Notes under the pieces: model-generated
Seen by the model: only the letters and a program-made list of their open reading frames with translations
Databases searched by the model: none
Told to the model about the DNA's origin: nothing
In this document: piece after piece, positions 10,189 to 64,000 of the stretch
How positions within the stretch are numbered: position 1 is the first letter of the stretch
Layout of the letters: every line of letters begins with the position of its first letter
Program-made: the position numbers and the translations under genes
Origin: Marinicella marina
GTDB lineage: Bacteria; Pseudomonadota; Gammaproteobacteria; Xanthomonadales; Marinicellaceae
Direction: 5' to 3' (one strand)
Length of the DNA: 64,000 nt
Assembly (NCBI RefSeq): GCF_026410145.1
Contig: NZ_JAPMLO010000004.1

Positions 10189-10764
10189 TCAATCAAAACT
10201 ATTGAGGAAAATCACATCACTCTCAGTAATGATTATGGCGCCATCATTACGGACCAAACGATAAAACTCTTGTGAAGACTGGTTACCTCTCGCACCAGAG
10301 AGCACATAGGCTAAAACATAGACTTCACCAACTGGCTCTGTTGGTGGAATCCAAAACAATGTTCTTGAGCCCACATTACCATGGCTGCTGGTATGGGTGG
10401 CTGCCATCATGGCGCTGCCACCACAGTCCCTCACTTCAGTTTCATCATCAAAGTTAAAAGTACCGACTTTCTGGCCTTTGCCATCGACCACTGAGATCAC
10501 AATACCAGTATAAGTGGCTTGATTGCCTGCACCCGTTGCGGTCAGGGTGATCTCGACGTGTTCAAAAACGTTATATTCGGAAACATTCGATGACAATACA
10601 TAGCCTCCGGTATTTTGATTTCTGGTTCTGGATTGCATGCCAGTGATGGTTGAAAAATTGGCAACCACATCACAGGTACCAGCACCACTAGCGAATGCGC
10701 TTGATTCTGAATTCAAAACCCAACAACCCACGACAATCAGTAAAATTTTTATTTGTGTTTTCAT
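10189..10764 (-). CDS. Secreted hypothetical protein (signal peptide; C-terminal DVIFLNSFD tail)
   Basis: N-terminal MKTQIKILLIVVGCWVLNSESSAFA signal. No recognisable catalytic motif. Shares its C-terminal tail with two other secreted proteins in the window. Confidence 0.5.
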   Translation of the reverse strand: MKTQIKILLIVVGCWVLNSESSAFASGAGTCDVVANFSTITGMQSRTRNQNTGGYVLSSNVSEYNVFEHVEITLTATGAGNQATYTGIVISVVDGKGQKVGTFNFDDETEVRDCGGSAMMAATHTSSHGNVGSRTLFWIPPTEPVGEVYVLAYVLSGARGNQSSQEFYRLVRNDGAIIITESDVIFLNSFD

Positions 10765-19651: not shown

Positions 19652-19781
19652 AGTTACTTCCTCAGATTATTTTTTTGTCACATTCTAACACCTGCTATTG
19701 GTTTTTTTCTTATGACATCTACATCTTGTTCACGTCATTGATTTAAAATGATTTATTATTTTGTATATGTGGGAATCAAAA

Positions 19782-20903
19782 ATGAAGGCAACTACCTTTT
19801 TAATCACAGCCATCTTCGCAGCATCTAATGTCTATGCAGCGCACCATGCGGACCATTCAGCCTCTCATGCCATTAAAGTCAGCACTTATGCTGAGGGTTT
19901 GAATCAACCTTGGGGCATGACATTCTTGCCTGATGGTCGTTTGTTGGTTACCGAAAAACAAGGCAACCTCAGAATAGTTGCTAAAGACGGTAAAGTTTCC
20001 CCGCCATTGACTGGTTTGCCAGAAGTCGACACCAATGGTCAAGGCGGCTTGTTGGATGTGGTACTTGACCCTGATTTTGAGAATAACCAAATGGTTTATT
20101 TTTCATACGCCAAATCGGCGACAGGTGGACAAGCCAGAACAGCTGTTGGCAAAGGCAAACTGGTCAAAAATGGACTGCAAAATGTTACAAGCATTTGGCA
20201 ACAAGCACAGCCTTTCAAAGCCGGTTATCACTATGGATCACGTCTGGTATTTGACCGGACCGGGCACTTATTTGTCACCTTAGGTGATCGTGGCAACCGC
20301 GATAATGTGCAAGACCTGAGTAATCATTTTGGCAAAGTGGTGCGCATTGACACCGATGGCAAGCCAGCAGCTGACAACCCATACCTTAACAAGCCCAATG
20401 TCTTGCCGGACATTTACAGCTCGGGTCACCGCAACATTCAAGGTGCTTTCCTGCATCCGGAGACAGGTGCGCTGTGGGGCAACGAACACGGCCCGCGCGG
20501 TGGTGATGAAATTAACTTAATCCAAGCCGGTAATAACTACGGCTGGCCAACCATCACCTTCGGCATCAATTACAGCGGCACACCCATCACCGATAAAACA
20601 GCGATGGAGGGCATGCAACAGCCTTTGCATTATTGGGACCCGTCCATCGCCACATCTGGCATGCTCATCTACACAGGTGATGCCTTCCCAAATTGGCAGG
20701 GTGATGTCTTCACTGGTGCTTTGAAATTGATGCATTTGAATCGGGTAAAATTTGATGACAACAATAAAGTGGTCACAGAAGAACGTTTATTAAAAGATCA
20801 AAATCAACGCATCAGAGCCATCGAACAAGGCCCAGCAGGACACATTTATGTGGCCACCGACAACCCTGAGGGCAAAATCCTCAAAATATCACCAGCCCAG
20901 TAA
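19782..20903 (+). CDS. PQQ-dependent soluble sugar (aldose) dehydrogenase, YliI/Asd-like
   Basis: Signal peptide MKATTFLITAIFAASNVYA. NQPWGMTFLPDGRLLVTEKQGNLRIV and HRN..G motifs of the glucose/sorbosone dehydrogenase beta-propeller. The ORF track starts at 19761; the Met at 19782 is preferred. Confidence 0.8.
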   Translation: MKATTFLITAIFAASNVYAAHHADHSASHAIKVSTYAEGLNQPWGMTFLPDGRLLVTEKQGNLRIVAKDGKVSPPLTGLPEVDTNGQGGLLDVVLDPDFENNQMVYFSYAKSATGGQARTAVGKGKLVKNGLQNVTSIWQQAQPFKAGYHYGSRLVFDRTGHLFVTLGDRGNRDNVQDLSNHFGKVVRIDTDGKPAADNPYLNKPNVLPDIYSSGHRNIQGAFLHPETGALWGNEHGPRGGDEINLIQAGNNYGWPTITFGINYSGTPITDKTAMEGMQQPLHYWDPSIATSGMLIYTGDAFPNWQGDVFTGALKLMHLNRVKFDDNNKVVTEERLLKDQNQRIRAIEQGPAGHIYVATDNPEGKILKISPAQ

Positions 20904-24815: not shown

Positions 24816-25577
24816 ATGATCATGCTGGTAAAAAACATATCCTTCATTGGCGTTATATTCACAGCCATGTTTATGATAAATGTTGTTCATGCACAAACAG
24901 CTTTCCTTGAACAAAACGGCTTAATCATAATTGAATTAGAGTCATTAACAGATATTCCAAATGGCTGGTCTGAGGAAAGCGTGTTCGATGAAATATCAGG
25001 GACCAGTTACCACCGTTATGCTGGTAATAACCAATTCAATAACCCGGGTGTGGACTTGTTTGAAGTGTTGATATTTATCCAAAACCCAGGTACCTATCAA
25101 TTTCGTTGGCGCAACTTAATTGCAAAGGGCGACTCAAACACCGATGCCAATGATTCTTGGCTCAGAATCATTGCTGATGCTTATTACGGCCAACAAGGCA
25201 ACGACAGCATTGTTTGTCCCAAAGGCTATGACCCAAACAACAATGACTGCCCAATTAACCTCGATGCCGACGGTGAAGTCACGCCTGAGGGGTCAGGCAG
25301 TAACGGCTGGTTTAAAGTCTATCGCAGTGGTTCGGGCTTATGGAAATGGAGCACCCGCACCAGTGACAATGATGCCCATGAGATCTTTGCCCGATTTGAT
25401 ACCAGCGGTTTGTATTTAATCCAAATTTCTGGCCGCTCCCAGAACCATGCCATTGACCGCATGGTTCTGAATGATGTTAATTATAACGGCGATCCAACTG
25501 ACTTGATTTTGCCCGAGTCAACAACCATCGATGCTGATTTGATTTTTGCTGATGGTTTTAACGGTGAATTCTTTTAA
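24816..25577 (+). CDS. Secreted hypothetical protein (253 aa; C-terminal DLIFADGFNGEFF tail)
   Basis: Signal peptide. No recognised motif. Shares its C-terminal tail with 10189..10764 and 52286..53728. Confidence 0.45.
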   Translation: MIMLVKNISFIGVIFTAMFMINVVHAQTAFLEQNGLIIIELESLTDIPNGWSEESVFDEISGTSYHRYAGNNQFNNPGVDLFEVLIFIQNPGTYQFRWRNLIAKGDSNTDANDSWLRIIADAYYGQQGNDSIVCPKGYDPNNNDCPINLDADGEVTPEGSGSNGWFKVYRSGSGLWKWSTRTSDNDAHEIFARFDTSGLYLIQISGRSQNHAIDRMVLNDVNYNGDPTDLILPESTTIDADLIFADGFNGEFF

Positions 25578-28500: not shown

Positions 28501-30915
28501 ATCGGAAGAATAATAGGTGTTCAATTGATCACTGTCGGTGAACTTCAAAGAACGCCGCTCTATACTTTTTAACACCCGAGTGGCTGCAGATTGTACATTC
28601 TCGGCTTTGCGTTGGCGTTGATCAATCAGACTTTGTTTCTTGTTTTCAAAGGTCTCGTGTAGTTCTTCGCGTTTGGTCAGTATTTGGTCTAAAAAGGCTT
28701 CGTTCTCACTGAAGTTAACCTCAAGCTCTTCCAACAACACCATCAAACGCGCCAACTGTTCATCACAACCATCAGGCGTTTCTGCCAGGGCCACCCCACT
28801 GGTGATGCTTTGCGAAAGGACTGCCAATTGAGCACCAAACTCAGCCACTGATTCAGTTGCTGACAGCTCCTTGCTGGTCAGCTTAGCATGCGCTTTGGTT
28901 TGATTGATCCGAGAGTATACTTGTGAAACTGACTCTAATATGGCGGTTTTCTGCAGCGTATCATCAATTTCTAAACCGTTGATGACCTCTGAGAGTGCAT
29001 CCAAACCCAAACTCATTTCATCCAATTCGTCCAACAAAGGCTTTAAATCTTTGACTGTTTTAATCTCAGCGGTTTTTTGGTGCACCTCATCGACCACCTG
29101 CTCATAATGCAACATGGCTTGTTCATCCGACAGGAACTGAATGGTTCTTTTACCCAGTGCCTCAATTTCATCATCCACTTGCAATGACAAGTCTTCAATC
29201 GCACTTAAATCAATATAACGGTACTCGCGCAATGACAACAAGTGGCCTTTTTGTCGTTTTAACTGCAACAAACCATCTACAAATGGTGCTGGCGTATCCC
29301 AATTAGCAATTTTGATTTCACGAAGTAATTGTTGTAAGTCATGCTGAGCCTCTTTCAACGCTTTGGCACTTTGTAGATTGATTGATTTGACCTTTTCAAA
29401 CTCGTCCAACACCAATTCTGATGTTTCACCAATCAAATCCAACTGTTCTGAGAAATCACCCACGGCTGAATTTTCCAGCCAATAATAACCATCCTTCACC
29501 CGCTGGATGTTTTTTATCAAATCCTCATAGACTTGAACACTGGGTTGTTGCTCACTGATCAGTTTGGAAATACCATATAGTTCTGAGATGCCTTGGACCA
29601 ATTCCGCATTTCCAATGGTTGATAATTCACTGTCATCTTTGCTTTGACTGGCACTGTATTCCTCACTGGTATAAGGCGTTTGCCAGATTTGCATGGGGTG
29701 TATCCGCGTCGCCTCAGTTGACTCGGCGCGAAAAATAATCATTTTGCCATCATCATATAATGAATAACCGTGACCAAAAATGGGATTTTGTAATTCCTTG
29801 CGGATGGTGTTGTAAGAATAAAGCGCCAGTTTTCCTTCCAGCTTTTCATAAAACACATACAGCACATCTTCGCCATTGGGTGCATTCCAGCGCCGTTTGA
29901 ACAACAAACCATCTACATCTTCAGCAAAGACTTTGGATTCACCACTTTGTAAGTAGTAACCACCAGGGAAAATGATGCCATGATCATTTGGCAACTGCAC
30001 ACAAGCATGTCCCAAGGCATCTATTCGCAAGACCTCATTGTTGCGGGTATTGAACACAAAATAACGCCAATCTTGTTCTTTGTAAGGCAAGATTTTTAAT
30101 AAAATCAAGGCATGGACTTTGGCATAGTAGATGTCGGCATCTTCCAAAGATTGATTCGGTTCATCAACCGCCTCTTGGTAAATACCCTCACCATCCTCGG
30201 TGTTATTCTCGACCTTGATGGTCAAATCACCACCGACGGTTTCAACAAAAACTTCATCCATGATTGATACATGAGGGTGACGGCCTTGAACGAATTGGTC
30301 TCGCTCGGCTTTGTGCCACTCAAAATCATAAGCCGGTGGTAATTCAATGTCGCGCTCACCGCGATCATCGATGTATTGCACTTCACCGTTGTTGCCTATG
30401 ACCCAACGAAATACCCTGATGTCGCCGATTTTTTCGCCAATTTGGAATGCCGCCAAGAGTTTTTGATCGACCACACGCAGCTGAATCAACTCGGCTTTTT
30501 TGTAGTAACTGTAGAGCTCTAAAAACTGTTTAACAAAAACCTCGTCAGCCAGGAATGAACCGGCCAATGGTTCCGCTTTGACTTCAAATTTTCCCTCGTT
30601 TTCATGCAGCGAATACAGCGCGAAAACGTCCTTTACTTGGGTGGCTTTTTTTAAACCAATAAACACATTGTAGCCAAACAACAATTGTCCATTGATTCGC
30701 ACCATATCACGTGGTGTGCAATTGTTTTCTGTTCTTACCCTGACCCGATCAACCACTTCAAGTACCGTTTTGCCGAATGTTGATTCACGCAATTGGTTCA
30801 AGCCAATGATTTTTTGTTCTAATTGTTTGTTTTGTTCCTCTAGGCGTTTGCGAATGACCTCATATGAGCCGCCACTGGCTACCGCTTGATTGATGGTGCT
30901 GTTGTTATCAGCCAT
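25594..30915 (-). CDS. Giant (1773 aa) protein with AAA_5 (MoxR/dynein-type) ATPase domain, long coiled-coil regions and Lys-rich C-terminal tail
   Basis: Single uninterrupted ORF. Walker A LLISPPGYGKTTL, Walker B VMLYLDDIQ, then FCVIMAGNP, which matches the AAA_5 pattern. C-terminal KSKAAKRSAMNKSASKKKAVKKTTKKE. Confidence 0.8.
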   Translation of the reverse strand: MADNNSTINQAVASGGSYEVIRKRLEEQNKQLEQKIIGLNQLRESTFGKTVLEVVDRVRVRTENNCTPRDMVRINGQLLFGYNVFIGLKKATQVKDVFALYSLHENEGKFEVKAEPLAGSFLADEVFVKQFLELYSYYKKAELIQLRVVDQKLLAAFQIGEKIGDIRVFRWVIGNNGEVQYIDDRGERDIELPPAYDFEWHKAERDQFVQGRHPHVSIMDEVFVETVGGDLTIKVENNTEDGEGIYQEAVDEPNQSLEDADIYYAKVHALILLKILPYKEQDWRYFVFNTRNNEVLRIDALGHACVQLPNDHGIIFPGGYYLQSGESKVFAEDVDGLLFKRRWNAPNGEDVLYVFYEKLEGKLALYSYNTIRKELQNPIFGHGYSLYDDGKMIIFRAESTEATRIHPMQIWQTPYTSEEYSASQSKDDSELSTIGNAELVQGISELYGISKLISEQQPSVQVYEDLIKNIQRVKDGYYWLENSAVGDFSEQLDLIGETSELVLDEFEKVKSINLQSAKALKEAQHDLQQLLREIKIANWDTPAPFVDGLLQLKRQKGHLLSLREYRYIDLSAIEDLSLQVDDEIEALGKRTIQFLSDEQAMLHYEQVVDEVHQKTAEIKTVKDLKPLLDELDEMSLGLDALSEVINGLEIDDTLQKTAILESVSQVYSRINQTKAHAKLTSKELSATESVAEFGAQLAVLSQSITSGVALAETPDGCDEQLARLMVLLEELEVNFSENEAFLDQILTKREELHETFENKKQSLIDQRQRKAENVQSAATRVLKSIERRSLKFTDSDQLNTYYSSDPMIHKVKELIGQLHDLDDSVKADDTEARLKAIKEQAIRSLRDKQDIFEDGGKNIKLGKHRFSVNTQSLDLTILPRNDALYFHLSGTDFYEPVNNQKLHDYKDFWPQTMSSENDSVYRAEYLAYNIFQDAIQGEAGSSIDQLVSLDEEALVDFVKAYANPRYQEGYEKGIHDHDASKIISQLLQIYQTAPLMMFGPSARALASYFWLHSSVKNQKHYTQRAQTANKIAKTLGDRSMCQDLYVEFKAEMDAFYLQNDLRFNAAQMLLAAEFLLAHIVDDSPTKTFQVSKHAADLVKQLNDHLTAVGEDKAFKNELDALNDDPKQQWQLIGYWLSGMIRKDNEINQDMLRFINEATVLILAKQGKAYDASALDLACQVDDLLGDHSRIKNRTLKFEFDEFMERLSHYHQQLVPEYQEYREMKQTVMHEQRAQMALETFKARPLASFVRNQLINQSYLPIIGDNLAKQMGAAGQNKRSDLMGLLLLISPPGYGKTTLMEYTANRLGLNFMKINCPSLGHDVKSLDPANAPNATAKQELEKLNLALEMGNNVMLYLDDIQHTHAEFLQKFISLCDGTRKIEGVWRGMSKTYDMRGKKFCVIMAGNPYTESGEVFRVPDMLANRADVYNLGDILGGQEDVFAMSYIENSLTSNPVLAPLALREMNDLYLLMDMAKGKEVATSDLSHSYASSEINEIITVLKHLFTVQEVILKVNQAYISSAAMDDRYRQEPPFKLQGSYRNMNKLAEKVVPVMDQHELQQLIDDHYAGEAQLLTTGAEENLLKLKALRGTLNAEDEERWQAIKAEFKIRNALAGDEADGATKIASQIGALKTDMSELTGQWMQQSQASQSQTEQQLSIVSDRLSQAIEKLNLQVNVSNEPLPGLDDAMISLSETLETSFVPIVVAMNKKLNINNEVLEQVTELSQKIKNLSLSKSTRTVNTTESQTVKSKAAKRSAMNKSASKKKAVKKTTKKE

Positions 30916-30998
30916 GCCTCACTCCAAAATACTGTAATTAAACGTTCCTTGCCAGCAGCAGAGCCAGAATCAACTGGCCCTGCTGGTATGCATCAACT

Positions 30999-33002
30999 TT
31001 AACTTTCGGTGTCTTGCTCATCGTTGCGAGACAATTTCTTGATCATTTGAGTGATGGTGTCTTTATCAAAACTCTTACCGTTACCCAAACTCATGACCTT
31101 AGCCACCGCAGCTTGTAAGATGTCGCTTTTACCAATGGCACCATCTACCGCTTTACCCACTGCCAACGAACTCATGAACTTCTCTAAGAAGTCACCATTG
31201 CCACCGACAATATCGATATTCGCTTCTTTTAAAGCCTCTGCCAGTACTTTGGCTTGGGTTTCAGCAATACCCGTATTGGCCTCAATCGCTTTCATGTTCT
31301 CAACATGCGACATGTCTAAGCCCATGCGAAACTCCTCATGTTCTCTGACCGTCTCATCCATGGTCGCCAGCGCCGCAAACTTCTCTTTCAAACCTCGTGC
31401 TTCTGCCGCATAGCGTTCTTCGATGGCTTGTGCTTCAGCCACTTTAATCTTCACTGCGACCATGGCTTGTTGTTCTTCACCTTGAGCATCCGCTTCTTTC
31501 ACCCGCACATTGGCCATGCCTATATCCTCAGCACCGACCGCCTCTGCTTTGAATTTCTCTGCCATCACAGCCGCTTCTGCCTCACCTTGTTTCTGATGAG
31601 CGGCGGCTTTGGCTTCTATGACTTTGGCTTCTGCCAAACCAGTGGCAGCCGCTTCCTCACGCACACCTTCAGCCAATCTGATTTTGGCATCGGCTTCTTT
31701 GGCTGCTGATTCACGTGCCGCCTCAGCCAGAGTGATGCGCTCACTGGCACGGTGTTTGGCTGTGGTTTCTTGTGCTTCGGCCGCTTTGATTTCCTTGATT
31801 AAATCTTGTTCTGCCAAAGCTTCAGCTGCAATCACCTGAGCTTGTTTGTTGCGTTTGGCTTCTTCCACCACCCGCAGTTCATTGATTTTTTCTTCTTGCT
31901 CAGCCACTGTTTTTTCTACCGCTATGCGTTCACGCACCACATCTGCAATGTTTTTCTTTTCAACCTCAAGGTCTTTTTCTTTGTTGATTTCTTGCAGCGC
32001 CACTTCACGTTCACGGCCAACAATTTCTAACTGTCTAACCTTAGTGACTTTTTCTTCTTCGATTGCCACCGCACGCATGCGGTTATTGGCCGCCACTTCA
32101 ACTTCTCGCTGTTTGTTTTCTTCCAGTACCATCAGTTCTTGATCGGTAGCAATCCTGGCTGTTTCTGCTTTCAGGCGTTCTTCACTTTCAATTTTTTCTT
32201 TTTCAGCTTCCTCGCGGGCTTTGACCGAAGCAATTTCGCGCATCTGCCTGGCCTCTGCATCGGCTTCAATGCGTTCCAACTCTAAAATTCGCTCCCTGGC
32301 TTCAACATCCCTTTTCTTGATTTTGGTTTCCTCTTCACGCTCAAACTCATTGGTGAGGATTTTTTGTTTCGCCGTTAACTCAGTGATTTTACGAATACCC
32401 TGGGCATCCAAGATGTTGTTCTCATCCAAAGACGAAATCGGCGTTTGCTCCAAATAGTCAATCGCCGCATCTTCCAACACATAACCATTCAAGTCTTTAC
32501 CAATGACCATGATGATTTCATCCCTGAAGCGATCACGTTCTTCATACAACTCCTCAAACTCAAGTTTTTTACCCACAGTTTTTAAAGCTTCTGAGAACTT
32601 GGCACTGAATAACTCTTCTATGGTGGCTTGTTTAGATGCCCGCTCACAACCAATCGCTTGTGCCACTTTCAGTACGTCTTCTTTGGTTTTATTAACTCGA
32701 ACAAAGAAGGTTACCTTGATATCCGCCCTGATGTTGTCCTTACAAATCAATCCATCTTGAGCCCGACGATCAATCTCAATGGTCTTGAGTGATATGTTCA
32801 TGAATTCCTTTTTATGAATAACTGGCCACACGGTGCGACCCGTAAAGGTCACTTCCGGTGTTTCTTTCATGGTGTTCACAATCATGGCCTGACCCTGCTC
32901 TACCTTTTGGTAGAACTTCATCACAATCAGGGCCAACCCGATGAGTGCCAACACCACCACCCCAGCATAGGTGGCTATGGCTATTAATAAGTCGCTATTC
33001 AT
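30999..33002 (-). CDS. Flotillin-family SPFH/band-7 protein (YqiK-like)
   Basis: N-terminal TM, SPFH core, and a roughly 350-aa E/A/K-rich coiled coil (EA repeats). Confidence 0.85.
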   Translation of the reverse strand: MNSDLLIAIATYAGVVVLALIGLALIVMKFYQKVEQGQAMIVNTMKETPEVTFTGRTVWPVIHKKEFMNISLKTIEIDRRAQDGLICKDNIRADIKVTFFVRVNKTKEDVLKVAQAIGCERASKQATIEELFSAKFSEALKTVGKKLEFEELYEERDRFRDEIIMVIGKDLNGYVLEDAAIDYLEQTPISSLDENNILDAQGIRKITELTAKQKILTNEFEREEETKIKKRDVEARERILELERIEADAEARQMREIASVKAREEAEKEKIESEERLKAETARIATDQELMVLEENKQREVEVAANNRMRAVAIEEEKVTKVRQLEIVGREREVALQEINKEKDLEVEKKNIADVVRERIAVEKTVAEQEEKINELRVVEEAKRNKQAQVIAAEALAEQDLIKEIKAAEAQETTAKHRASERITLAEAARESAAKEADAKIRLAEGVREEAAATGLAEAKVIEAKAAAHQKQGEAEAAVMAEKFKAEAVGAEDIGMANVRVKEADAQGEEQQAMVAVKIKVAEAQAIEERYAAEARGLKEKFAALATMDETVREHEEFRMGLDMSHVENMKAIEANTGIAETQAKVLAEALKEANIDIVGGNGDFLEKFMSSLAVGKAVDGAIGKSDILQAAVAKVMSLGNGKSFDKDTITQMIKKLSRNDEQDTES

Positions 33003-33098
33003 TGTTTATTTCTCCTTTATCAGTCTTTGCTATATTGTCCACAACCGAAGTTGTTACTTGTTGTTTCATGGTTTGTGTTTAAGACAGACCATTTATTT

Positions 33099-33800
33099 TT
33101 AATTTAATTCTTCTGCTTTGATGACCCAGTAACTGCCGTCTTCTTCATCGTATGATTTCAGTATGACCAAATCACCTTTGGTGATGTTATCAGACACTTT
33201 GGCTCTGACATCAAACAGCATCCCTGCGCCACCATCTTGGTACTCTGCTTGGCCGAAGCTCTCAGTGACAGAGCCCGTTTTAACCAAACACTCACTGCCT
33301 ATGAAAGAAACCTTGTTTCTGGCCGTGTACGACACAAAAGCACTTTTCAGAGGCCTGATGAATTGTGCCGTGACTGGTATGGCCAAAGCAAAACTGACCA
33401 ATAACAAAGCCGCACCAACCAACCACTGTAACAGCGCCAAAGGAATCAGTGGCATAACCACTGATGCCAAAATGTAACTGATCAACCAAGCCGAAGCCAC
33501 CAAAATCGAGACCACCACAGTCACAGGCACACCAGTCAGACCCCATTTCAACATAAAGCCGGTAATCCCTCTGAGACTTTCAGGGTCAAAATCAGGATCT
33601 ACCGTAGCACCTACATCGGCATCTACATCAAGCTCAATATCTGCGTCAACATCAACATCAAGATCGAAGTCAGCATCAAACATATCAATATCAACCGCAC
33701 CTAACATCGCCAATAACCAGTAAACAATGATGATTGCCAGTAAAAAGGTAAACACAATCACAGGAAAACTCGTTATGTTTGTTAAAAAAATTTCCATCAC
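33099..33800 (-). CDS. YqiJ-like NfeD-family membrane protein (DUF1449; TM region plus C-terminal OB-fold)
   Basis: N-terminal TM, acidic D-rich linker, further TM helices, and a C-terminal beta-rich domain GDLVILKSYDEEDGSYWVIKAE as in NfeD partners of flotillins. Overlaps upstream gene by 4 bp. Confidence 0.6.
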   Translation of the reverse strand: MMEIFLTNITSFPVIVFTFLLAIIIVYWLLAMLGAVDIDMFDADFDLDVDVDADIELDVDADVGATVDPDFDPESLRGITGFMLKWGLTGVPVTVVVSILVASAWLISYILASVVMPLIPLALLQWLVGAALLLVSFALAIPVTAQFIRPLKSAFVSYTARNKVSFIGSECLVKTGSVTESFGQAEYQDGGAGMLFDVRAKVSDNITKGDLVILKSYDEEDGSYWVIKAEELN

Positions 33801-34269: not shown

Positions 34270-34980
34270 TCATTCCTTGTCAATGATCCTTTTCAACACA
34301 TCTGCTGCATCTTCCGTGACTTGTTCAGAAACTTCATTCTGATGTTTTTCGGTCAACACTGGCTTGCGCTCATTAACCATTGCATCATCCACTTCATATT
34401 GTTCATCAAGGCTTTGCTGTTTTCTGCGTATCCTTTCCAAGGATCGTTTGGCAGATAACATTTTGCTGTCGGCTTGGTTGAAGTTTTTGGTAATGACTTC
34501 AGTCGCCTTTTGGATGTCCGCAGTGGTTTGTACCATTGCCACCTGCCGTTCCAGTTCTTTCAATGAACGTTCGGCATTTTCCATTTGTCGAGTCAAATGA
34601 CCTAAGTGCAGTTCATGTGACTTGAGTATGCCCGCCTCGGCTGCCAGGTCTTGTTCCAGTTCAACCATTTCAGTGGCCAAATCAAAAGCCAATATTTCAT
34701 CATTTTGACTCAAAGCCTTAATGATGCGCTGCTCATGCTCATCAACTTGCGACTTCATCAACTTAACTTTTCTAGAGCATTGTGATTCTTTGGCCAATGC
34801 GTCGCTGATGGCATGTTTGGCACTGCTTAAATTAACTTTGGCCACTTCAATTTGTTTTTCGTATATTTTATTACCAGTTGAATCCATAACCGCTTCACTC
34901 AATGCCCTGGAATCATCTCTGATGACTTGAATGATCTTATCTAAGATGTTCATTCCTGCACGTTTCTTATCACCACTCAT
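34270..34980 (-). CDS. PspA/IM30 family protein (YjfJ-like; bacterial ESCRT-III homologue)
   Basis: 236-aa all-helical coiled coil. The N-terminal pattern ILDKIIQVIRDDSRALSEA parallels PspA/YjfJ. Confidence 0.75.
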   Translation of the reverse strand: MSGDKKRAGMNILDKIIQVIRDDSRALSEAVMDSTGNKIYEKQIEVAKVNLSSAKHAISDALAKESQCSRKVKLMKSQVDEHEQRIIKALSQNDEILAFDLATEMVELEQDLAAEAGILKSHELHLGHLTRQMENAERSLKELERQVAMVQTTADIQKATEVITKNFNQADSKMLSAKRSLERIRRKQQSLDEQYEVDDAMVNERKPVLTEKHQNEVSEQVTEDAADVLKRIIDKE

Positions 34981-52285: not shown

Positions 52286-53728
52286 TCAATCAAAGCCATT
52301 CTCAAAAATCAAATCACAACTGATTTCACCACAAAATTCATAGGCGCCAATATCCACGGCACCACTTGGAATCCTGCTTTGGGTGGCTTGGTGTTTGAGG
52401 TACTCATACGCAAGCGCATACTCAGGCAGCAATTCAGGTAATACAGCCATGCCCTGATTGATTAATTCACTGTCACTTAATGGACCGAACGCCAAGTTAT
52501 TTAAATCGATGAACCCTGGATCGGAACCTGTAATCACATTGCCCAAGTCATTGATGCTGCCATTGGGCGAACAGTGGCAGTCTTGCCAACCCGTTTTGAA
52601 CCAATTATGCTGGATGTTCATCATCCCGTTGCCGTCTATCAAAGCCTGATTGCTCCCTGCTGCAGTGCCATAATACACATTATTGAACACGTGAGCAGTC
52701 TCATCATTGGTGGATAAGCGCATCAATGTGGTGTTGCCACTGCGACTTGAGAATACGGTGTTGTTGTAGAAATATAAATCACCTTTGCGGTAATCACTGG
52801 TGGTACCACTGTCACCACCATAATGAACCATTTGCGAATTACCCTCTCCTTCTGATTCAATCAACACATTGCCATACACATGGGTGGTGGCATAGCTGGG
52901 ATGATTGACCAGCACACTGGAATCCTCAGCATCAACCAAATCCAATTGGCGGTTACCGTCTTTGATCCAATTGTTTCGAACAACCAAGCCAGCAGAGCGG
53001 TCTTTCAGGTTATTGCCCAAAGCACCGGTTCTTAAAGGACCAAAGCGGTTGCCCTCATAAATGATGCCAATGGCGGCGGTGTAGGTGTTATGCTCAAAAA
53101 TTCGACCTTCAATGCCGTTGTCGTATATGTGATTGTTTTGAATCAATATGTCTTGGGTCTGACCACCATTGGCACCGACAAATATGCCGTTGCCTGAGTC
53201 TCTGATGGTGTTATTGCGAATGGTGATGTGTTGCCCTATTTCGACATAGACACTGGCTGCATTGTTGCTGTAAGTTTCACTGCCACCTCCATCGTTGGTG
53301 AATTGAAATGGCGGCCTGGCGGAGCGTAAATCCAAATTTTCAATGATGATGTGTTCGGGAATGGCGTTACTGGGGGTATTGGAACCACCGATTTTAATTA
53401 AACCACGGCGTTCGTTCCAGAAGTTAACCCCTGGGACAGTGGTGGCCGCATTGCCATCTATCACTGGCTGTTGGCCTTGTGGTCCATTCACACCAATCAC
53501 TTGGATGGGGTTTTCTTCAGTGCCCACTGCATTGATCACCCATTTTTCATTGTAGGGTGTGGCACGCCAATGAATGAACACCCGATCACCGGCTTGTAAA
53601 TTTGCCCAAGGAACATCACCGATAGCAGCAAGAGGTTGCTCTGGCCCGACGCGATAATCAATTGCGTGGCAAACACCGAACAACTGCAAAGCCATCAGAG
53701 CCAGTATTGTTTTTAATCGTTTTAGCAT
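52286..53728 (-). CDS. Secreted right-handed parallel beta-helix repeat protein (pectate-lyase/NosD-like fold; C-terminal DLIFENGFD tail)
   Basis: Signal peptide. Repeated Asn/Gly-rich units (NNTIRDSGNGIFVGANGG, IQNNHIYDNGIEG, and so on) characteristic of PbH1 repeats. Confidence 0.7.
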   Translation of the reverse strand: MLKRLKTILALMALQLFGVCHAIDYRVGPEQPLAAIGDVPWANLQAGDRVFIHWRATPYNEKWVINAVGTEENPIQVIGVNGPQGQQPVIDGNAATTVPGVNFWNERRGLIKIGGSNTPSNAIPEHIIIENLDLRSARPPFQFTNDGGGSETYSNNAASVYVEIGQHITIRNNTIRDSGNGIFVGANGGQTQDILIQNNHIYDNGIEGRIFEHNTYTAAIGIIYEGNRFGPLRTGALGNNLKDRSAGLVVRNNWIKDGNRQLDLVDAEDSSVLVNHPSYATTHVYGNVLIESEGEGNSQMVHYGGDSGTTSDYRKGDLYFYNNTVFSSRSGNTTLMRLSTNDETAHVFNNVYYGTAAGSNQALIDGNGMMNIQHNWFKTGWQDCHCSPNGSINDLGNVITGSDPGFIDLNNLAFGPLSDSELINQGMAVLPELLPEYALAYEYLKHQATQSRIPSGAVDIGAYEFCGEISCDLIFENGFD

Positions 53729-55100: not shown

Positions 55101-55212
55101 GCGCGAATTGTAACCGAATCATGATTTTGTTAACAGCTGCTGAAATTTATCAGTGACAATTGAATCCAAGCTTGGCACAATAAATATCATTCAAAACACA
55201 CCAAATATTCTT

Positions 55213-57633
55213 ATGCCACATCACATCTTATTGACCCTGTTGCTGTTTTGCAGCACCCTCATGGCCGAAGAAAAACAGGATGCCCCGAAAGACATAAGCG
55301 GTTTCACTGAAAAGATGGTCAAAAAGTCCGGCTTCATTGATTTTTACTGGGATGAAAACAAAGGAAAGATATACCTAGAAATAGACCAATTCAATCAAGA
55401 TTTATTGTATGCCTACTTTTTACAATCCGGCTTAGGTTCCAATGATGTTGGTTTGGATCGTGGACAAATCGGCGGTTATGCATTGGTACAATTTAAAAGG
55501 CTGGGCAACAAAGTCATGATGATTGAGCCGAATCAAGCCTACCGAGCTTTCTCCGACAACCCAGCTGAACGCCAAGCCGTGGCCGATGGTTTCGCCCAGT
55601 CGGTGCTGTGGGGCGGTGAAGTGGTGGCCAGCAGCAGTGATGCGGTGTTGGTTGATTGGACTGCTTTTCTAACCAGAGACTCACAAGGCATCTCCGAACG
55701 CCTAGAGACCATGAAAGAAGGTCAGTTCAAACTGGATGAAGCCAGATCAGCCATTGTGATTGAAAGCAGCAAAAACTTTCCTCAGAATACTGAATTGTCA
55801 GCCATGATTACGCTTGAAGGTAAAAAACCTGGCCGCCATGTGCGTTCAGTAACACCTGCTGGCAACATCATCAGTTTAAAAACCCACCACTCTCTGATAC
55901 AACTACCAGAAGAACCCTACCAACCTCGCGCCTTTGATCCCCGTTCCGGAGCCATACCCATCAGCTTCAAAGATTATGCTGCGCCTTTGAGTGAATCAAT
56001 GAATAAACAATGGGTGATACGCCATCGTTTAGAGAAACAGGACCCAACGGCTGCAATCAGCGACGCCGTTGAACCGATTGTTTATTATTTGGACCCGGGT
56101 ACACCAGAACCAGTCAGATCGGCATTGTTAGAAGGCGCCAAATGGTGGCAAGCAGCCTTTGAAGCTGCCGGTTATTCAAATGCTTATCGGGTTGAACTGT
56201 TGCCTGAAGGGGCAGATCCATTGGACATCAGATACAACACCATTCAATGGGTGCACCGGTCCACTCGAGGCTGGTCATATGGCGCCAGTATCGTTGATCC
56301 ACGCAGTGGTGAAATCCTCAAAGGTCATGTGACCTTAGGTTCCTTGCGGGTCAGACAGGACATGCTGATTGCTCAAGGTTTGTTATCACCTTATGACGGT
56401 GAAAAAAATACGCAACAACTTGAACAAGACATCGAACAAATGGCTTTGGCTCGATTACGCCAGTTATCAGCCCATGAAGTGGGTCACACCATCGGTTTGA
56501 TTCATAATTTTTATGCCAGCAGTAAAGATCGCGCCTCGGTGATGGATTATCCACACCCATTGGTCAAACTGAATGAATCTGGTGAAATCGACTTGAATCA
56601 GGCCTATGACGTTGGCATTGGGGATTGGGACAAAGTATCCTTGGCCTATATATATCAAGACTTCGGTAATCAAGATGAAACTGCAGGCTTGAATCAATTG
56701 TTACAACAAGCCAAACGCGATGGCCATGTGTTTATCGCCGATCGAGATGCCCGCGCCGCGGGTGGTTCACACCCCTACTCACACCTTTGGGACAATGGCA
56801 AAGATGCCGCACAAAGCCTATTGGATGTACTACAAATCAGATCCACTGCGTTGTCAAATTTTGGCTTAGATACCATTCAACCAGGTCAGACCGTGGCCAG
56901 TTTGGAAAAATACTTGGTCCCCATCTACTTGTTTCACCGCTACCAAACAGAAGCTGCAGTGAAATTAATCGCTGGTGTTGATTACCGCTATGCCATCAAA
57001 GGTGAAGAACAAGTCGCAGCCACCATAGTGGATGCAGCCACTCAACAGAAAGCTTTGAGCGCGGTGTTAAAAACCTTGGATGTAAAGACCTTGGCTTTGC
57101 CCCAGGAGTTGTTGCCTTTGTTACTGCCTCCGGTTGAGGGCAGTTATCGCGATCGTGAACATTTCAAACACCGCACAGGGCTTAACTTCGATGCCTTGGG
57201 AGTAGCAGAAACCGCTGCCCAAAACACCCTCAAGTTCTTATTGAACCCCCAACGCATCAACCGCCTGATTGAGCACCATGCTCGGGACCAAAACATGCCG
57301 TCATTGAATACTGTTTTGGAACAATTGTGGCAAAGTACCTGGCAGAGAAAACATAAAAATGATTACCACCTAGCGGTTCAACAAGGTATCAATTGGACCA
57401 CGTTAGAACAGTTGATGCATGCGACAACCGCAGAGGAATTGTCGCCACTGGCACGCAGCCAAATGATTTCCTTCTTACAACAAAAACAAAAATCATTGGC
57501 TAAAAAACGCAGTCACAAAGCATTCAATGGTTACGCAGCAAAAACCATTGGCCAATTCATCAAAAACCCAAAGAAAACCACCACACAATCTATCAAACCC
57601 ATGCCACCAGGCTCTCCCATTGGTATGAACTGA
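55213..57633 (+). CDS. Secreted zinc-dependent metalloprotease (DUF5117/DUF4953-type, HExxH)
   Basis: Signal peptide at the internal Met (MPHHILLTLLLFCSTLMA). HEVGHTIGLIHN zinc-binding motif. About 800 aa. The ORF track starts earlier, at 55153. Confidence 0.75.
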   Translation: MPHHILLTLLLFCSTLMAEEKQDAPKDISGFTEKMVKKSGFIDFYWDENKGKIYLEIDQFNQDLLYAYFLQSGLGSNDVGLDRGQIGGYALVQFKRLGNKVMMIEPNQAYRAFSDNPAERQAVADGFAQSVLWGGEVVASSSDAVLVDWTAFLTRDSQGISERLETMKEGQFKLDEARSAIVIESSKNFPQNTELSAMITLEGKKPGRHVRSVTPAGNIISLKTHHSLIQLPEEPYQPRAFDPRSGAIPISFKDYAAPLSESMNKQWVIRHRLEKQDPTAAISDAVEPIVYYLDPGTPEPVRSALLEGAKWWQAAFEAAGYSNAYRVELLPEGADPLDIRYNTIQWVHRSTRGWSYGASIVDPRSGEILKGHVTLGSLRVRQDMLIAQGLLSPYDGEKNTQQLEQDIEQMALARLRQLSAHEVGHTIGLIHNFYASSKDRASVMDYPHPLVKLNESGEIDLNQAYDVGIGDWDKVSLAYIYQDFGNQDETAGLNQLLQQAKRDGHVFIADRDARAAGGSHPYSHLWDNGKDAAQSLLDVLQIRSTALSNFGLDTIQPGQTVASLEKYLVPIYLFHRYQTEAAVKLIAGVDYRYAIKGEEQVAATIVDAATQQKALSAVLKTLDVKTLALPQELLPLLLPPVEGSYRDREHFKHRTGLNFDALGVAETAAQNTLKFLLNPQRINRLIEHHARDQNMPSLNTVLEQLWQSTWQRKHKNDYHLAVQQGINWTTLEQLMHATTAEELSPLARSQMISFLQQKQKSLAKKRSHKAFNGYAAKTIGQFIKNPKKTTTQSIKPMPPGSPIGMN

Positions 57634-60001: not shown

Positions 60002-60637
60002 TTACAACTGCATCTTTTTATTTGATGATAATGGCTGTTGCAGTAAATTGCTGTATAGGTGATATATCTTATCGATGTTTTGATCCAGCTCTGCCAAGCT
60101 GTAGCGGTTGCTTATGACATCTGTGGCAAATTGCAGCCGCTGTCGTCGAGATGGTTGGGATGCCAAAATTTTTTCAGCCAATTCAATTGACACTTGATCT
60201 CGTTTTTGCATCCTTTGAATTTGTATTTCAGGGGTCACATCAACCACCAATATGCGGTCAAAATCTGGATAGTTTAAACCTGCTTGGTAAAGAGGAATCA
60301 CCCACACTTCAATGCATTTCGTGTTCTCAGCGGATTGTTGGATGAACGCTTCCCTGATCAATGGATGAAGTATTTGGTTCAGCTTTTTGAGCTTTTCATC
60401 GTCATTAAAAACGATGCGTTTCAATTGTTTTCGGTTCAGTGCACCCGCTTCAGTCAATATCGATTCACCAAATTCTTTAACCACTTGTGACAGCCCAACA
60501 GAACCTATTGCCACCACCTCTCGAGCTAAAACATCAGCATCTATGACACACGCGCCTTTCTCAGCAAACTCATCAGATACATAGGTTTTACCGGATGCTA
60601 TCCCCCCGGTCAGACAGATGATTAATTTGTTTTTCAC
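60002..60637 (-). CDS. coaE: Dephospho-CoA kinase
   Basis: P-loop LTGGIASGKT. Conserved position 3' of pilD. Confidence 0.9.
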   Translation of the reverse strand: MKNKLIICLTGGIASGKTYVSDEFAEKGACVIDADVLAREVVAIGSVGLSQVVKEFGESILTEAGALNRKQLKRIVFNDDEKLKKLNQILHPLIREAFIQQSAENTKCIEVWVIPLYQAGLNYPDFDRILVVDVTPEIQIQRMQKRDQVSIELAEKILASQPSRRQRLQFATDVISNRYSLAELDQNIDKIYHLYSNLLQQPLSSNKKMQL

Positions 60638-61491
60638 AAAGCAGGAAACAGCATGTTCAGTATTTCTTCACTGAATAAATAACTGACTAAGATACCTATG
60701 GATAGATATGGGCCGAAGGGAATTTTATTTTGGTAGTTATTCATCAGTTTTTGTACCACAGCGATCAGTAAGCCGCTGATGGAAGCGATAAATAAAACCA
60801 CAATCAATGCCTCAGCTCCAAGCCAAGCACCGCCAGCAGCGAGTAATTTAAAGTCACCATAGCCCATGCCTTCTTTACCTGTGGCTAATTTGAACAGATG
60901 AAACACAGTCCATAATGACAAATAACCAATCAGAGCGCCCACAATCGCCGCTGAAGGTGTGATGGTGAATTCAAATAAACTAAAAAACAAACCCAGCCAC
61001 AACAGTGACAAGCTGAGTTGATCTGGAATCAAAAAAGTATCAATATCAATCCAAGTGATGACCAGTAACATCCAAATCAATAAGCAGGCTGAAACAAAAG
61101 CCAGCGTCACGCCATATTGATAAGCAGCAAACCCAATCAAGAGCGCGCTCATCAATTCAACTAAAGGGTATCTGAATGGTATCTTTTTATGACAAAAACC
61201 ACATTTTCCACGCAACAACAAATAACTGATAACGGGTATGTTGTGCCAAGCTTTTAATTGAGTTTTACATTGTGGGCAATGAGATCTTGTGAAGGCTATG
61301 CCCGGTGGCTTCGACTCTTTGAGTTCGGTTTCGGTAAAATCAGCATAATCCTGTTTCCAAGCATATTCCAAAACAGGTGGTAGCCGCAAAATAACCACGT
61401 TCAAAAAGCTACCCACAAGCAAACCCACTGTCACAGCCAAAGCCATAAAAGCCATAGGGTATGCGCTTAAAACGCCAATAAACTCGGTCAT
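60634..61491 (-). CDS. pilD: Prepilin peptidase / N-methyltransferase (A24 family)
   Basis: Tetracysteine CPQC...CGFC zinc motif and polytopic membrane domain. Start chosen at MTEFIGVL (61491), abutting the pilC stop; the ORF track extends to 61539. Confidence 0.85.
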   Translation of the reverse strand: MTEFIGVLSAYPMAFMALAVTVGLLVGSFLNVVILRLPPVLEYAWKQDYADFTETELKESKPPGIAFTRSHCPQCKTQLKAWHNIPVISYLLLRGKCGFCHKKIPFRYPLVELMSALLIGFAAYQYGVTLAFVSACLLIWMLLVITWIDIDTFLIPDQLSLSLLWLGLFFSLFEFTITPSAAIVGALIGYLSLWTVFHLFKLATGKEGMGYGDFKLLAAGGAWLGAEALIVVLFIASISGLLIAVVQKLMNNYQNKIPFGPYLSIGILVSYLFSEEILNMLFPAL

Positions 61492-61492
61492 T

Positions 61493-62716
61493 TTAGAATA
61501 CAGATGCCATTTTAAAGATAGGTAGGTACATGGCCACAACCATCACACCAACCAGTCCGCCCACCAATACCATAATGATTGGCTCAAGCAAACTACTCAA
61601 TGCATCAACCGCATTGGAAACCTCTTGTTCGTAATAATCAGCCACTTTACCTAACATCGCATCTAAGTTACCTGACTCTTCACCAATGGCAGCCATTTGA
61701 ACCACCATATGTGGGAATAGTTGTGTTTGACTCATGGCCAATTGTAATTGGTGACCTGTTGACACGTCGTCTTTGATGTGTAGCACTGCGTCTCTGAACA
61801 CCACGTTACCCACTGCACCTGAGACTGTATCTAGACCTTCTACCAATGGAACACCTGCGGCGAATGTGGTTGATAATGTGCGGGCAAAACGGGCCACAGC
61901 AGCATCGAACAATATACCCCCAACAATTGGTATTTTAAGTGACAGTCGATCCAGCGCATGGGCGAATTTAAGTGACCTTCGTTTTAACTGAATGAAACCA
62001 AATACGGTGCCACCTAAAACCAGTAGTACCATAAACCAATATTCTTGCATGGTTTTCGAAGCACCAACCACCATTAAGGTCAGTCCTGGTAAGTCAGCAC
62101 CAAATCCTTTGAACATGTCCTGGAACTGCGGCACCACTTTGACCAACAATAATATCGTCACACCAATAGCCACGAACAAAACAGCTGATGGGTAGAACAT
62201 GGCTTTCTTGATTTTGCCTTTAATTTCTTCGGTTTTCTCTTTATAGGTGGCGATGGTATCCAGTAATTCATCTAACACACCAGCCTTTTCACCGGCGTTA
62301 ACCAAATTACAGTAAAGCTCATCAAAGTACAGCGGGTGTCTGCTCAGAGATTCAGCCAGGGATGAACCCGATTGAATTTCGGTTTTGACCTCATTAATGA
62401 GTTTTGCCATTCTGGGGTTGGACTGACCGCCTTCGATGATTTCAAAAGCCTGTACCATCGGTACACCTGATTCCATCATAGTTGCCAGCTGTCTACTGAA
62501 TAAGGAGATGTCTTGTGCCTTGATGGCCTTACCACCTGAAAACAATGATTTCTTTTTCTTATATATTTTTTTGACTTTAATGCCTTGCCTACGCAATTCA
62601 TTTTTTGCCAGGGTGGTTGACTTGGCCTGTTGGATGCCTTTGAGTTTTTTACCAATCTTATCTACACCAACCCACTCGTAGTTTTGTAATTCTTCTATTT
62701 TCTGTGCTTTTGCCAT
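61493..62716 (-). CDS. pilC: Type IV pilus assembly platform protein PilC (GspF family)
   Basis: Duplicated GspF domains, three TM segments, 407 aa. Confidence 0.9.
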   Translation of the reverse strand: MAKAQKIEELQNYEWVGVDKIGKKLKGIQQAKSTTLAKNELRRQGIKVKKIYKKKKSLFSGGKAIKAQDISLFSRQLATMMESGVPMVQAFEIIEGGQSNPRMAKLINEVKTEIQSGSSLAESLSRHPLYFDELYCNLVNAGEKAGVLDELLDTIATYKEKTEEIKGKIKKAMFYPSAVLFVAIGVTILLLVKVVPQFQDMFKGFGADLPGLTLMVVGASKTMQEYWFMVLLVLGGTVFGFIQLKRRSLKFAHALDRLSLKIPIVGGILFDAAVARFARTLSTTFAAGVPLVEGLDTVSGAVGNVVFRDAVLHIKDDVSTGHQLQLAMSQTQLFPHMVVQMAAIGEESGNLDAMLGKVADYYEQEVSNAVDALSSLLEPIIMVLVGGLVGVMVVAMYLPIFKMASVF

Positions 62717-62722
62717 AATTTT

Positions 62723-64000
62723 TTAATCCACTGTCACACGGTTGGCTTCAACCAAGCCCGTGATACCGTTTTTAACCTTTAATAAAGCTGATTTTCTTAA
62801 GTTAGCAATACCGTCTTTGGTGGCTTGCTCTGCTATTTCGATTGAGTTACCACCACCCAAAATAATTTTCTTGATGTTATCCGTTATGGGCATTACTTCG
62901 TATATACCCACTCGCCCTTTGTAGCCTTCATTACATTTACTGCAACCAACTGGGTCGTAAATGGTGGCATCAACCAAATCCTCATCTGTAAAGCCAGCTT
63001 CTAACAAAGCTTCCCTCGGAAATTCAGTTGGTTTTTTACAATCACACAGTCGACGTGCCAACCTTTGCGCAATGATCAATGACACCGCTGAGACGACATT
63101 AAAAGGCGCCACACCCATATTCACCAGTCGGCTGACCGTTTCAGGTGCGTTGTTGGTGTGTAAGGTAGATAAAACCATGTGACCTGTTTGTGCTGCTTTG
63201 ATGGCTATTTCTGCGGTTTCTAAATCTCGAATCTCACCGACCATGATGATGTCTGGATCCTGACGCAAAAATGACCTCAAGGCAGCCGAGAAGGTCATGC
63301 CTTGTTTGGCATTTTGTTGAACTTGGTTGATGCCATCCACTCTAATCTCAACCGGATCTTCGGCCGTTGATATGTTTCTGCCTTCGGTGTTAAGAATGTT
63401 AAGAGCAGTATACAGTGATACCGTTTTACCACTACCTGTTGGACCTGTAACCAACACCATGCCATAAGGTTTGACGATGGCATCCATGAACAGTTGCTTC
63501 TGTTCGTCCTCATAGCCCAACTTATCAATACCCATTTTCGCTGCGGAAGCATCCAACACCCGCATCACGATTTTTTCCCCAAACAAAGTAGGACAAGTAC
63601 TCAATCGAAAATCAATGGAATTATTCTTAGATAGATTCAACTTCACACGACCATCTTGCGGCACCCGCTTCTCAGCGATATCCAACTTCGACATTACTTT
63701 CAAACGAGAGGCAATTTTGGTTGTCATGTTCTTGGGAGGCTTTATCATGGTTTTCAGCATGCCGTCTATGCGGTAGCGTACTCGGTATGTTTTCTCATAC
63801 GGCTCAAAGTGAATATCAGAGGCTCCACGTTTAATCGCGTCTAACAAAACCTTATTTACCAGCTTAACCGCCGGAGAGTCAGCCAAATCCTCAGTGGCAT
63901 CACTGGTTTGTTCTTCTTGTTCATCCTCATACTCGATGTTTTCCAGTCCTTCGTCACCCAAATCATCCATCACACTGTTGGCTTCTTTCAGTGCTTCTTC
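62723..64000 (-). CDS. pilB: Type IV pilus assembly ATPase PilB (GspE family), 5' end beyond window
   Basis: Walker A GPTGSGKT, Asp box, His box, and tetracysteine CDCKK...CSKC. The reading frame continues to the window edge. Confidence 0.9.

Follow-up and report, generated by a model that had tools for sequence, protein, structure and literature searches.

How Gram-negative bacteria choose the folded periplasmic proteins that are to cross the outer membrane or to stay on it is, to our knowledge, largely unsolved beyond the type IX secretion system (T9SS) and the sortase-like systems, and we know of no linear signal for type II secretion. The T9SS type A domain (PF18962 / TIGR04183) is found at the C-terminus of unrelated Sec-exported hydrolases and adhesins, many per genome. 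It is a folded beta-sandwich of about 70-100 residues that is served by a known machine, and it occurs only in the Bacteroidota group; we know of no T9SS in Gammaproteobacteria. The signals of the PEP-CTERM/exosortase, GlyGly-CTERM/rhombosortase, MYXO-CTERM/myxosortase and LPXTG/sortase systems are short, cargo-independent and lineage-restricted. They are present on dozens of proteins per genome and were first recognised by comparative genomics. Each is tripartite, consisting of a motif, a transmembrane (TM) helix and a basic cluster, and is cut by a membrane enzyme. Herein, we analysed a 64,000-nucleotide stretch of the Marinicella marina contig NZ_JAPMLO010000004.1 (the window), in which three exported proteins share the same nine-residue tail at or near their C-terminal ends. 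We read the tail, with the consensus D-[LVI]-[IV]-F-x-[DN(S)]-[GS]-F-[ED], as a portable tag that marks many soluble, Sec-exported, non-lipoprotein enzymes and binding proteins of the Lysobacterales, the order to which Marinicella (Marinicellaceae) belongs, with dozens to about a hundred carriers in each Marinicella genome. We infer from sequence, with a probability of about one half, that this lineage-specific tag is exposed at the protein end, serves in sorting or retention, and is bound by strand pairing.

The three tails and the proteins that carry them, called cargo 1, 2 and 3, are located in the window as follows.

52286..53728, minus strand: cargo 1, an exported right-handed beta-helix protein of 480 amino acids (aa), ending in ...CGEISCDLIFENGFD and the stop
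52289..52315, minus strand: tail copy 1, DLIFENGFD, with the stop codon (52286-52288) directly after it
10189..10764, minus strand: cargo 2, an exported Reeler-domain protein of 191 aa, ending in ...ESDVIFLNSFD and the stop
10192..10218, minus strand: tail copy 2, DVIFLNSFD, with the stop codon (10189-10191) directly after it
24816..25577, plus strand: cargo 3, an exported protein of 253 aa with no annotated domain, ending in ...DADLIFADGFNGEFF and the stop
25536..25562, plus strand: tail copy 3, DLIFADGFN, with four extra residues (GEFF) before the stop

Typical N-terminal signal peptides can be read in the sequences of all three cargos, and BLAST detected no similarity between their bodies. 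Cargo 1, which is 100% identical to a protein of Marinicella sp. S1101, has a signal peptide, and its DIGAYE end motif is followed first by a CGEISC loop and then by the tail. The folds nearest to its predicted model are GH136 and PL6, and it is probably a carbohydrate-active enzyme. For cargo 2, the Pfam Reeler family (PF02014) was matched by the homologues P0180, P0195, P0198 and P0199. Cargo 3 is 100% identical to a hypothetical protein of Marinicella marina, whose database entry begins at the second Met and has 251 aa. The first-pass annotation, which was made from the letters of the window alone, had noticed that three signal-peptide proteins with unrelated bodies share a tail; the ends of the open reading frames (ORFs), the signal peptides and the BLAST comparison agree with it.

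That annotation had also required, beforehand, that the motif be more frequent in the proteome than expected by chance. In a six-frame scan of the 64 kb, the strict motif [DE][LVI]IF.[ND][GS]F[DEN] was found exactly three times, and all three matches are at the ends of the cargo ORFs. The amino acid composition of the 72 long ORFs in the window predicts 2e-4 chance matches at any position and 5e-6 close to the end of an ORF, and shuffled sequences contained a mean of 0.0005. The excess of three over 2e-4, the retention of the tail in all three cargo families and the hundreds of independent instances described below make chance or mis-called ORF ends a negligible explanation. The DNA of the three copies is identical at 18-21 of 27 bases and the flanking DNA is unrelated. 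Since the tail DNA agrees only as far as the codons force it to, and since the flanks differ, the conservation is at the protein level, and an origin from a DNA repeat or mobile element was ruled out.

We compared the C-termini of the homologues of each cargo. In the cargo 1 family, 69 of the 120 best homologues end in (C)D[LI][IV]Fx[DN]GF[ED], down to about 60% identity; the named ones belong to Marinicella, Marinicellaceae, Xanthomonadales, one Proteobacteria metagenome-assembled genome (MAG) and one 'Oceanospirillales' MAG. Most of the cargo 2 homologues end in DLIFYSGFE, DVIFLNGFE, DLVFTNGFEQLAPSQ (DLVFTNGFE...) or DVFTSGFE, which is one residue shorter. The cargo 3 homologues (Marinicella and Lysobacterales; 44-72% identity) keep D[LI]IFxDGF[ED], preceded by a variable linker and followed by 0-16 extra residues. 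In all three families the linker ahead of the tail varies and the tail itself is kept, and the lack of conservation upstream of position -10 sets the size of the element at about nine residues. The N/D position of the tail (position -4) can also be S, H or A in the cargo homologues. These residues make a turn-forming role more likely than isopeptide chemistry, and an isopeptide-type reactive Asn/Asp at this position was set aside on the same grounds.

The tail-less homologues were informative as well. In the gammaproteobacterial homologues of cargo 1, the DIGAFE end of the beta-helix is directly followed by a short Cys loop, and the loop by the tail. Among the best 120, 50 of the 51 tail-less homologues continue at the same junction with one of three domains, namely the T9SS type A domain (PF18962), PF26696, or a third domain, which contains Cys and has about 85 residues; in the remaining one, P0008, the motif is present and the protein extends beyond it. 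The named tail-less homologues, 60-70% identical, come from Flavobacteriaceae, Saprospiraceae and other Bacteroidota. In the cargo 3 family, PF18962 is present on some Bacteroidota members and an SLH domain on one Actinomycetota member. The high identity of cargo 1 across phyla indicates that its gene was transferred horizontally and that the C-terminal element was exchanged in the process, and this exchange is the behaviour expected of host-specific sorting signals. The first-pass annotation had likened the tail to C-terminal sorting signals, and the beta-helix family supports the comparison: in close homologues of the same cargo, the tail is at the exact position of the T9SS domain. The third alternative domain reads C..TT.F..G.W.NG.PD...C.C... 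and ends in ..VQP. Its carriers, all from Bacteroidota, are P0041, P0048, P0050, P0080, P0082, P0090, P0091, P0098, P0103, P0107 and P0109, and a Pfam scan of P0041 gave no match in this C-terminal region.

The spread of the tail was determined by a degenerate DNA scan for D-x-I-F-x-[DN]-G-F-[DE]-stop in one genome per species (185,579 species, 596 Gb). About 6 matches are expected by chance on both strands at uniform base composition, and at least 116 loci were found. According to the lineage labels, which were taken from the record titles, 114 of the 116 loci listed belong to Marinicella/Marinicellaceae, Dokdonella, Rhodanobacteraceae and further Lysobacterales, or to (gamma)proteobacterial MAGs with no finer classification. 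Among the matches listed, Marinicella and Marinicellaceae account for 48 loci, unclassified gamma-/proteobacterial MAGs for 22, Dokdonella for 13, Lysobacterales MAGs for 13, 'Alcanivoracaceae' MAGs for 11, and Rhodanobacteraceae, Rudaea, Pseudofulvimonas and one Xanthomonas MAG together for 7; two loci are outside these groups. The 'Alcanivoracaceae' MAGs are low in guanine-plus-cytosine (GC) content, as is Marinicella, and Marinicella was formerly placed under Oceanospirillales at NCBI (PMC7691419). The complete chromosome of Marinicella sp. W31 has at least eight loci with at least nine tail genes among the matches listed. In the flanks of the low-GC loci, extra tail genes occur at 23 per Mb, and the window has 3 per 64 kb; as a rough figure, a Marinicella genome would hold on the order of 100 tail proteins.

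The tail proteins of at least 60 aa among the matches listed (114 proteins) fell into 64 unrelated clusters. Fifty-six cluster representatives matched 52 Pfam families, which are typical of secretomes. The cargo types include peptidases (S8, M12B, M36, M14 and M64), GH44, endonuclease I, FG-GAP proteins, beta-propellers, beta-helices and Calx-beta proteins. Outside the window, signal peptides were scored with a simple heuristic. A signal-peptide-like N-terminus was present in 79 of 89 complete tail ORFs (about 89%) vs. 317 of 1062 control ORFs from the same DNA (Fisher p = 1e-28), and several tail ORFs that were negative under a stricter version of the heuristic have clear signal peptides by eye. 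The earlier idea of a cargo-independent element on exported proteins is therefore upheld by the 64 clusters and the signal-peptide counts. As to whether all carriers have signal peptides, the answer is three of three in the window and most, but not all, elsewhere.

The tail was then set against the described systems. The claim that it matches no known C-terminal signal held: there is no TM helix, no basic cluster and no match to a hidden Markov model (HMM). Searched against Pfam and NCBIfam release 20 (June 2026), the tail gave no match at E <= 1; a faint choice-of-anchor Q match covers residues 447-465 of cargo 1, just upstream of the tail. No curated NCBIfam/TIGRFAM sorting-domain model recognised it, nor did the models for the T9SS type A and B domains (PF18962 / TIGR04183 / TIGR04131). 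It is like the T9SS type A domain in its position on unrelated exported cargos, but it consists of nine residues and is gammaproteobacterial. It is as short and as cargo-independent as the tripartite signals, but the window proteins stop 0-4 residues after the motif, as do most instances, with no TM segment; no K or R follows the motif; the last residue is acidic; and non-terminal positions are tolerated. E or D is the last residue in 115 of 115 tabulated tail proteins, where it is fixed by the search pattern, and also in the homologues that were found free of the pattern.

Other described systems were compared in the same way. The C-terminal beta-signal of outer-membrane proteins, which is read by the beta-barrel assembly machinery (BAM) and by the DegS PDZ domain, is likewise a short aromatic/hydrophobic terminal strand for which strand pairing is supposed. 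However, it belongs to barrel proteins and has an aromatic last residue, as in the TonB-dependent receptor of the window, which ends in ...LTANWRF. The last motif residue of the tails is D, E or N (GEFF comes after it in copy 3), and the bodies that bear them have soluble folds, among them the beta-helix and the Reeler domain, and include enzymes. Type I secretion is a one-step export by an ATP-binding cassette (ABC) system of proteins that lack a signal peptide, whereas the tail carriers have signal-peptide-like N-termini in the proportions given above. Donor-strand complementation in chaperone-usher pili, SpyTag and isopeptag resemble the tail in that each uses a single terminal beta-strand taken from a larger fold. 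Unlike in those systems, an acceptor groove for the tail is only a candidate and no covalent chemistry is implied, given the S, H and A at the N/D position. Tail carriers at NCBI are called 'hypothetical protein' or are named by their body domain only, and a full-text literature search on the motif strings and on related secretion topics returned nothing relevant to the tail. By an operational definition, a sorting tag is a short element that is shared by many unrelated exported proteins of one lineage and is interchanged with other sorting domains in homologues, and this is what we observed. Comparative-genomic evidence of this kind also led to the first recognition of PEP-CTERM, GlyGly-CTERM and the T9SS domains.

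We considered whether the tail could be a structural or protective element with no role in sorting, either the leftover first strand of a lost C-terminal jelly-roll or a generic cap at domain boundaries, which would steady the protein end or protect it against tail-specific proteases of the periplasm. An acidic C-terminal residue disfavours tail-specific proteolysis of Prc/Tsp substrates, and the acidic last residue of the tail would act in this way; in addition, the motif starts larger modules and occurs at domain boundaries and after signal peptides. However, the tail has five near-invariant positions across 64 unrelated families, in DNA with a GC content of 0.37 to 0.73, which a remnant would not keep, and a protective end does not need the conserved hydrophobic LIF...F core. 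Neither the tandem duplication of the tail (below) nor its exchange with T9SS and SLH domains is expected of a cap. Finally, the AlphaFold2 model of cargo 1 (66 sequences) has a mean predicted local distance difference test score (pLDDT) of 91, the last ten residues have 53, and no strand is packed on the beta-helix body. Thus, we regard a purely structural or protective role as unlikely. The unpacked tail of the model would fit a tag that pairs as a strand with another protein. The first-pass annotation had suggested beta-strand augmentation with an outer-membrane or surface-attachment partner; the model is in line with the augmentation, and no such partner was found among the neighbours of the listed tail genes.

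The position of the motif was determined in a metagenome scan in which the stop codon was not required and in which about one tenth of the matches look like chance. Of 126 motif matches, 32 are directly before the stop. The distance from motif to stop is 0-3 residues in 48 matches, 4-10 residues in 20, 11-30 residues in 9 and more than 30 residues in 38, and in 11 matches the ORF runs off the contig. On low-GC, Marinicella-like metagenome contigs, about 28 copies are C-terminal vs. 3 elsewhere. In the scan of the genome loci, at least 132 copies are 0-1 residue from the stop, 116 of them by virtue of the search pattern. Tandem C-terminal tails were found in a Marinicella MAG (L032) and in three metagenome loci (L130, L165 and L187), e.g. 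DLIFKNGFESDIIFKDGFE and DFIFKDGFEGDLIFKDGFE, each followed by the stop; they fit a binding epitope rather than a structural strand. In the Marinicella-like lineage, the hydrolase of L160 has the motif straight after its signal peptide, and L191 has one internal copy.

These distributions bear on the possibility that the motif is a processing site, at which a lineage-specific periplasmic or extracellular protease trims extensions or domains from secreted enzymes. The motif does precede C-terminal modules that look removable, as well as short variable extensions, it also occurs after signal peptides, and many of the cargos are peptidases, a class that is often trimmed during maturation. In most Lysobacterales genes, however, nothing follows the motif and there is nothing to remove, as the 32 metagenome matches directly before the stop and the copies within one residue of it illustrate, and no protease gene is associated with the listed loci. 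We therefore consider processing improbable. The same distributions do not agree with a strictly C-terminal signal that is read through its free carboxylate, because extensions of 1-16 residues, tandem copies, copies after the signal peptide and internal copies occur. Given that extensions, duplication and an N-terminal position are tolerated, the tail is probably recognised through an exposed strand with an N-G/D-G turn.

On higher-GC metagenome contigs, the motif is part of longer units. One of these, class (b), is a 21-residue C-terminal unit, D[LF]IFxDGFESGxTxAWSxT[VY]P before the stop, which is present on unrelated proteins of L138, L140, L150, L155, L174 and L212 (GC about 0.6); in L201 and L232, further modules follow it. 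The other, class (c), is an unannotated domain of about 200 residues, DLIFADGFESGNLSAWSS...RYRARFYFDP...YFDAFESRRxxYIGP before the stop. It is usually C-terminal behind Pro/Thr linkers, sometimes in 2-3 tandem copies (L123, L135, L152, L164, L176, L179, L198, L204, L208, L213, L215, L218, L221-L224 and L235). The class (c) domain starts with D-x-I-F-x-x-G-F-E, and D11, I13, F14, G17, F18 and E19 are invariant in alignment A3, which comprises 14 class (c) sequences picked by a DNA pattern that itself encodes the motif. The window tails match these invariant positions, except that copy 2 has S for G and copies 1-3 have D or N for E. The domain has no significant Pfam or NCBIfam match and no relative among PDB sequences; a weak full-length match to Polysacc_lyase (PF14099), which starts at GFE, is not significant. 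Neither the tail nor the class (c) domain was matched in Pfam, NCBIfam or PDB sequences, with PADLOC and PHROGs outside the search. In the ConA-like/polysaccharide-lyase jelly rolls (PF14099; 2zzj, 6kcw), GFE(SG)...W of the motif aligns to the start of the fold. The window proteins differ from these in that they have just the nine residues, placed behind unrelated folds: the rest of the class (c) fold (about 190 residues, RYRARFYFDP ... YFDAFESRR..IGP) is absent after the window tails, the DNA downstream of the stops leaves no space for it, and the domain HMM has no match in the window.

One upstream repeat family has a member with just the tail at its end (L182) and members with the complete class (c) domain there (L119 and L218). 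Together with the shared residues, this indicates that the Lysobacterales tail is the first strand of the jelly-roll standing alone. The earlier description of the tail as an extreme C-terminal element holds for most copies in the Lysobacterales; in other lineages the motif starts the 21-residue unit and the jelly-roll of about 200 residues. A more tentative proposal, to which we give limited credence, is a hitherto undescribed sorting system of the Lysobacterales, in which such a detached first strand would bring folded, Sec-exported enzymes, dozens to hundreds in a genome, to a dedicated partner for secretion or surface docking by strand complementation.

The class (c) HMM led to a 250-aa secreted homologue in Marinicella sp. 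W31 that stands alone, with 17 database relatives (family P0206-P0223). P0206 and P0207, from this Marinicella and Xanthomonadales family, are secreted, Cys-rich, lyase-like jelly-roll proteins of 250 aa (L237:10001-10753 and L238:10001-10753). In a profile-profile comparison, the class (c) domain and the stand-alone family align over their full length with a probability of 99.4%. The end of the signal peptide of the family, AFA, aligns to IFA of the motif, and the mature protein begins with QCDDTNFxAW... and lacks the DLIFxD segment. The mature protein therefore looks as a donor-strand acceptor would, and the family is an unproven candidate for the receptor.

A split jelly-roll, in which the tail docks by completing in trans a partner jelly-roll that lacks its first strand, with the P0206-P0223 family as the candidate, would account for several of these findings: the tail is the same as the first nine residues of the class (c) domain, the domain HMM finds a secreted stand-alone homologue in Marinicella sp. 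W31, the mature N-terminus of that homologue starts where DLIFxD would end, and one upstream family ends in either the tail or the whole domain. The stand-alone protein itself argues otherwise. It keeps the residues aligned to GFESG (QCDDT), so the strand is only partly missing. Its AlphaFold model (pLDDT 83) resembles the complete polysaccharide lyases PL20, PL36, PL14 and PL7, and likeness to PL20, PL36 and PL14 is what sets the stand-alone family beside the ConA-like jelly rolls. In two genomes its gene is within a glycan cluster with sulfotransferase, methyltransferase and MBOAT genes, which points to an enzyme of glycan metabolism. Only 18 database clusters were found, none of them shown to be from Dokdonella. 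We consider docking to this family a long shot. The P0206/P0207 cluster, which also includes a TOD1/MUCI70-like protein, is possibly a sulfated-glycan locus.

We return to the reading of the tail as a sorting or retention tag, which would be explained most economically if the strand pairs with a partner protein. The cargo would be exported through Sec and would fold in the periplasm. The tail, a flexible hydrophobic/aromatic strand that has an N-G or D-G turn, might then pair with a lineage-specific partner, and the partner would pass the cargo to an outer-membrane secretion route or hold it at the cell surface. Candidates for the partner are a type II component, an anchor in the outer membrane or on the cell surface, and a jelly-roll acceptor. 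In Lysobacterales, folded exported enzymes generally leave through the type II secretion system. It is part of the core genome of Marinicella/Wenzhouxiangella (PMC7691419).

The absence of the tail from the outer-membrane receptors and lipoproteins of the window speaks for this reading. Several observations weigh against it. First, some exported enzymes of the window are without the tail, including the Met-zincin at 55153-57633 (plus strand) and the GSDH at 19761-20903; hence, the tail is not required for export in general. Second, the motif is not strictly C-terminal, since extensions of 1-16 residues are common and N-terminal and internal copies exist. Third, the motif is integral to a larger jelly-roll elsewhere, so the function of the tail could be tied to that fold. 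Finally, ORFs of at least 120 aa in the 116 listed loci and the window were clustered, and no recurrent non-cargo partner emerged; the co-occurring protease or transporter that the first-pass annotation had proposed to look for across genomes is not among these neighbours. What did recur besides cargo was limited to generic ABC ATPases, the orthologues that flank the beta-helix gene, and spurious antisense ORFs in GC-rich DNA. An apparent cluster of C39-peptidase ABC exporters was rejected, as its members were joined only by generic ABC ATPase similarity.

If the more tentative proposal of a detached strand that acts by strand complementation is true, the tail would be the first linear, transplantable post-Sec sorting signal for soluble gammaproteobacterial enzymes that has no membrane-spanning segment. 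The tail provides a direct experimental handle and would allow the secretome to be predicted in Marinicella, Dokdonella and related environmental and wastewater bacteria. As the first strand of a larger domain, it suggests that sorting tags may evolve from domain fragments. If it can be transplanted, so short a tag could serve engineered secretion or surface display.

Several further observations were made at the tail-bearing loci and in the window. In L029:1895-3662, L049 and L051, the gene for a small secreted protein of about 90-110 aa that carries the tail lies directly upstream of that for a secreted protein of about 320-490 aa. The downstream protein starts with ...QLGSGFNYQGALLDNGIPANGDYD, and L084 has a member of the same family; the two genes form a conserved pair. 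The tail-less Met-zincin of the window has 826 aa and the domains DUF4953/DUF5117, and it shows that not every exported hydrolase of this genome has the tail. The region 25594-33800 (minus strand) includes the gene for a protein of 1773 aa in which DUF3686 ('ATPase involved in DNA repair'), DUF7902 and an AAA domain were recognised. Two unannotated proteins are encoded on the same strand, one of 667 aa that has a hydrophobic N-terminus and one of 233 aa; a PspA/IM30 gene lies nearby at 34270-34980. The gene at 12648-14834 (plus strand) encodes an OsmC-YcaO fusion, in which an OsmC-like domain is followed by a YcaO cyclodehydratase domain and its C-terminal domain. At the edge of the window, 60634-63973 (minus strand) encodes a pilD/pilC/pilB-like set that consists of a prepilin peptidase (A24), a T2SSF-type platform protein and a T2SSE-type ATPase; a prepilin peptidase of this kind is common to type IV pili and type II secretion.

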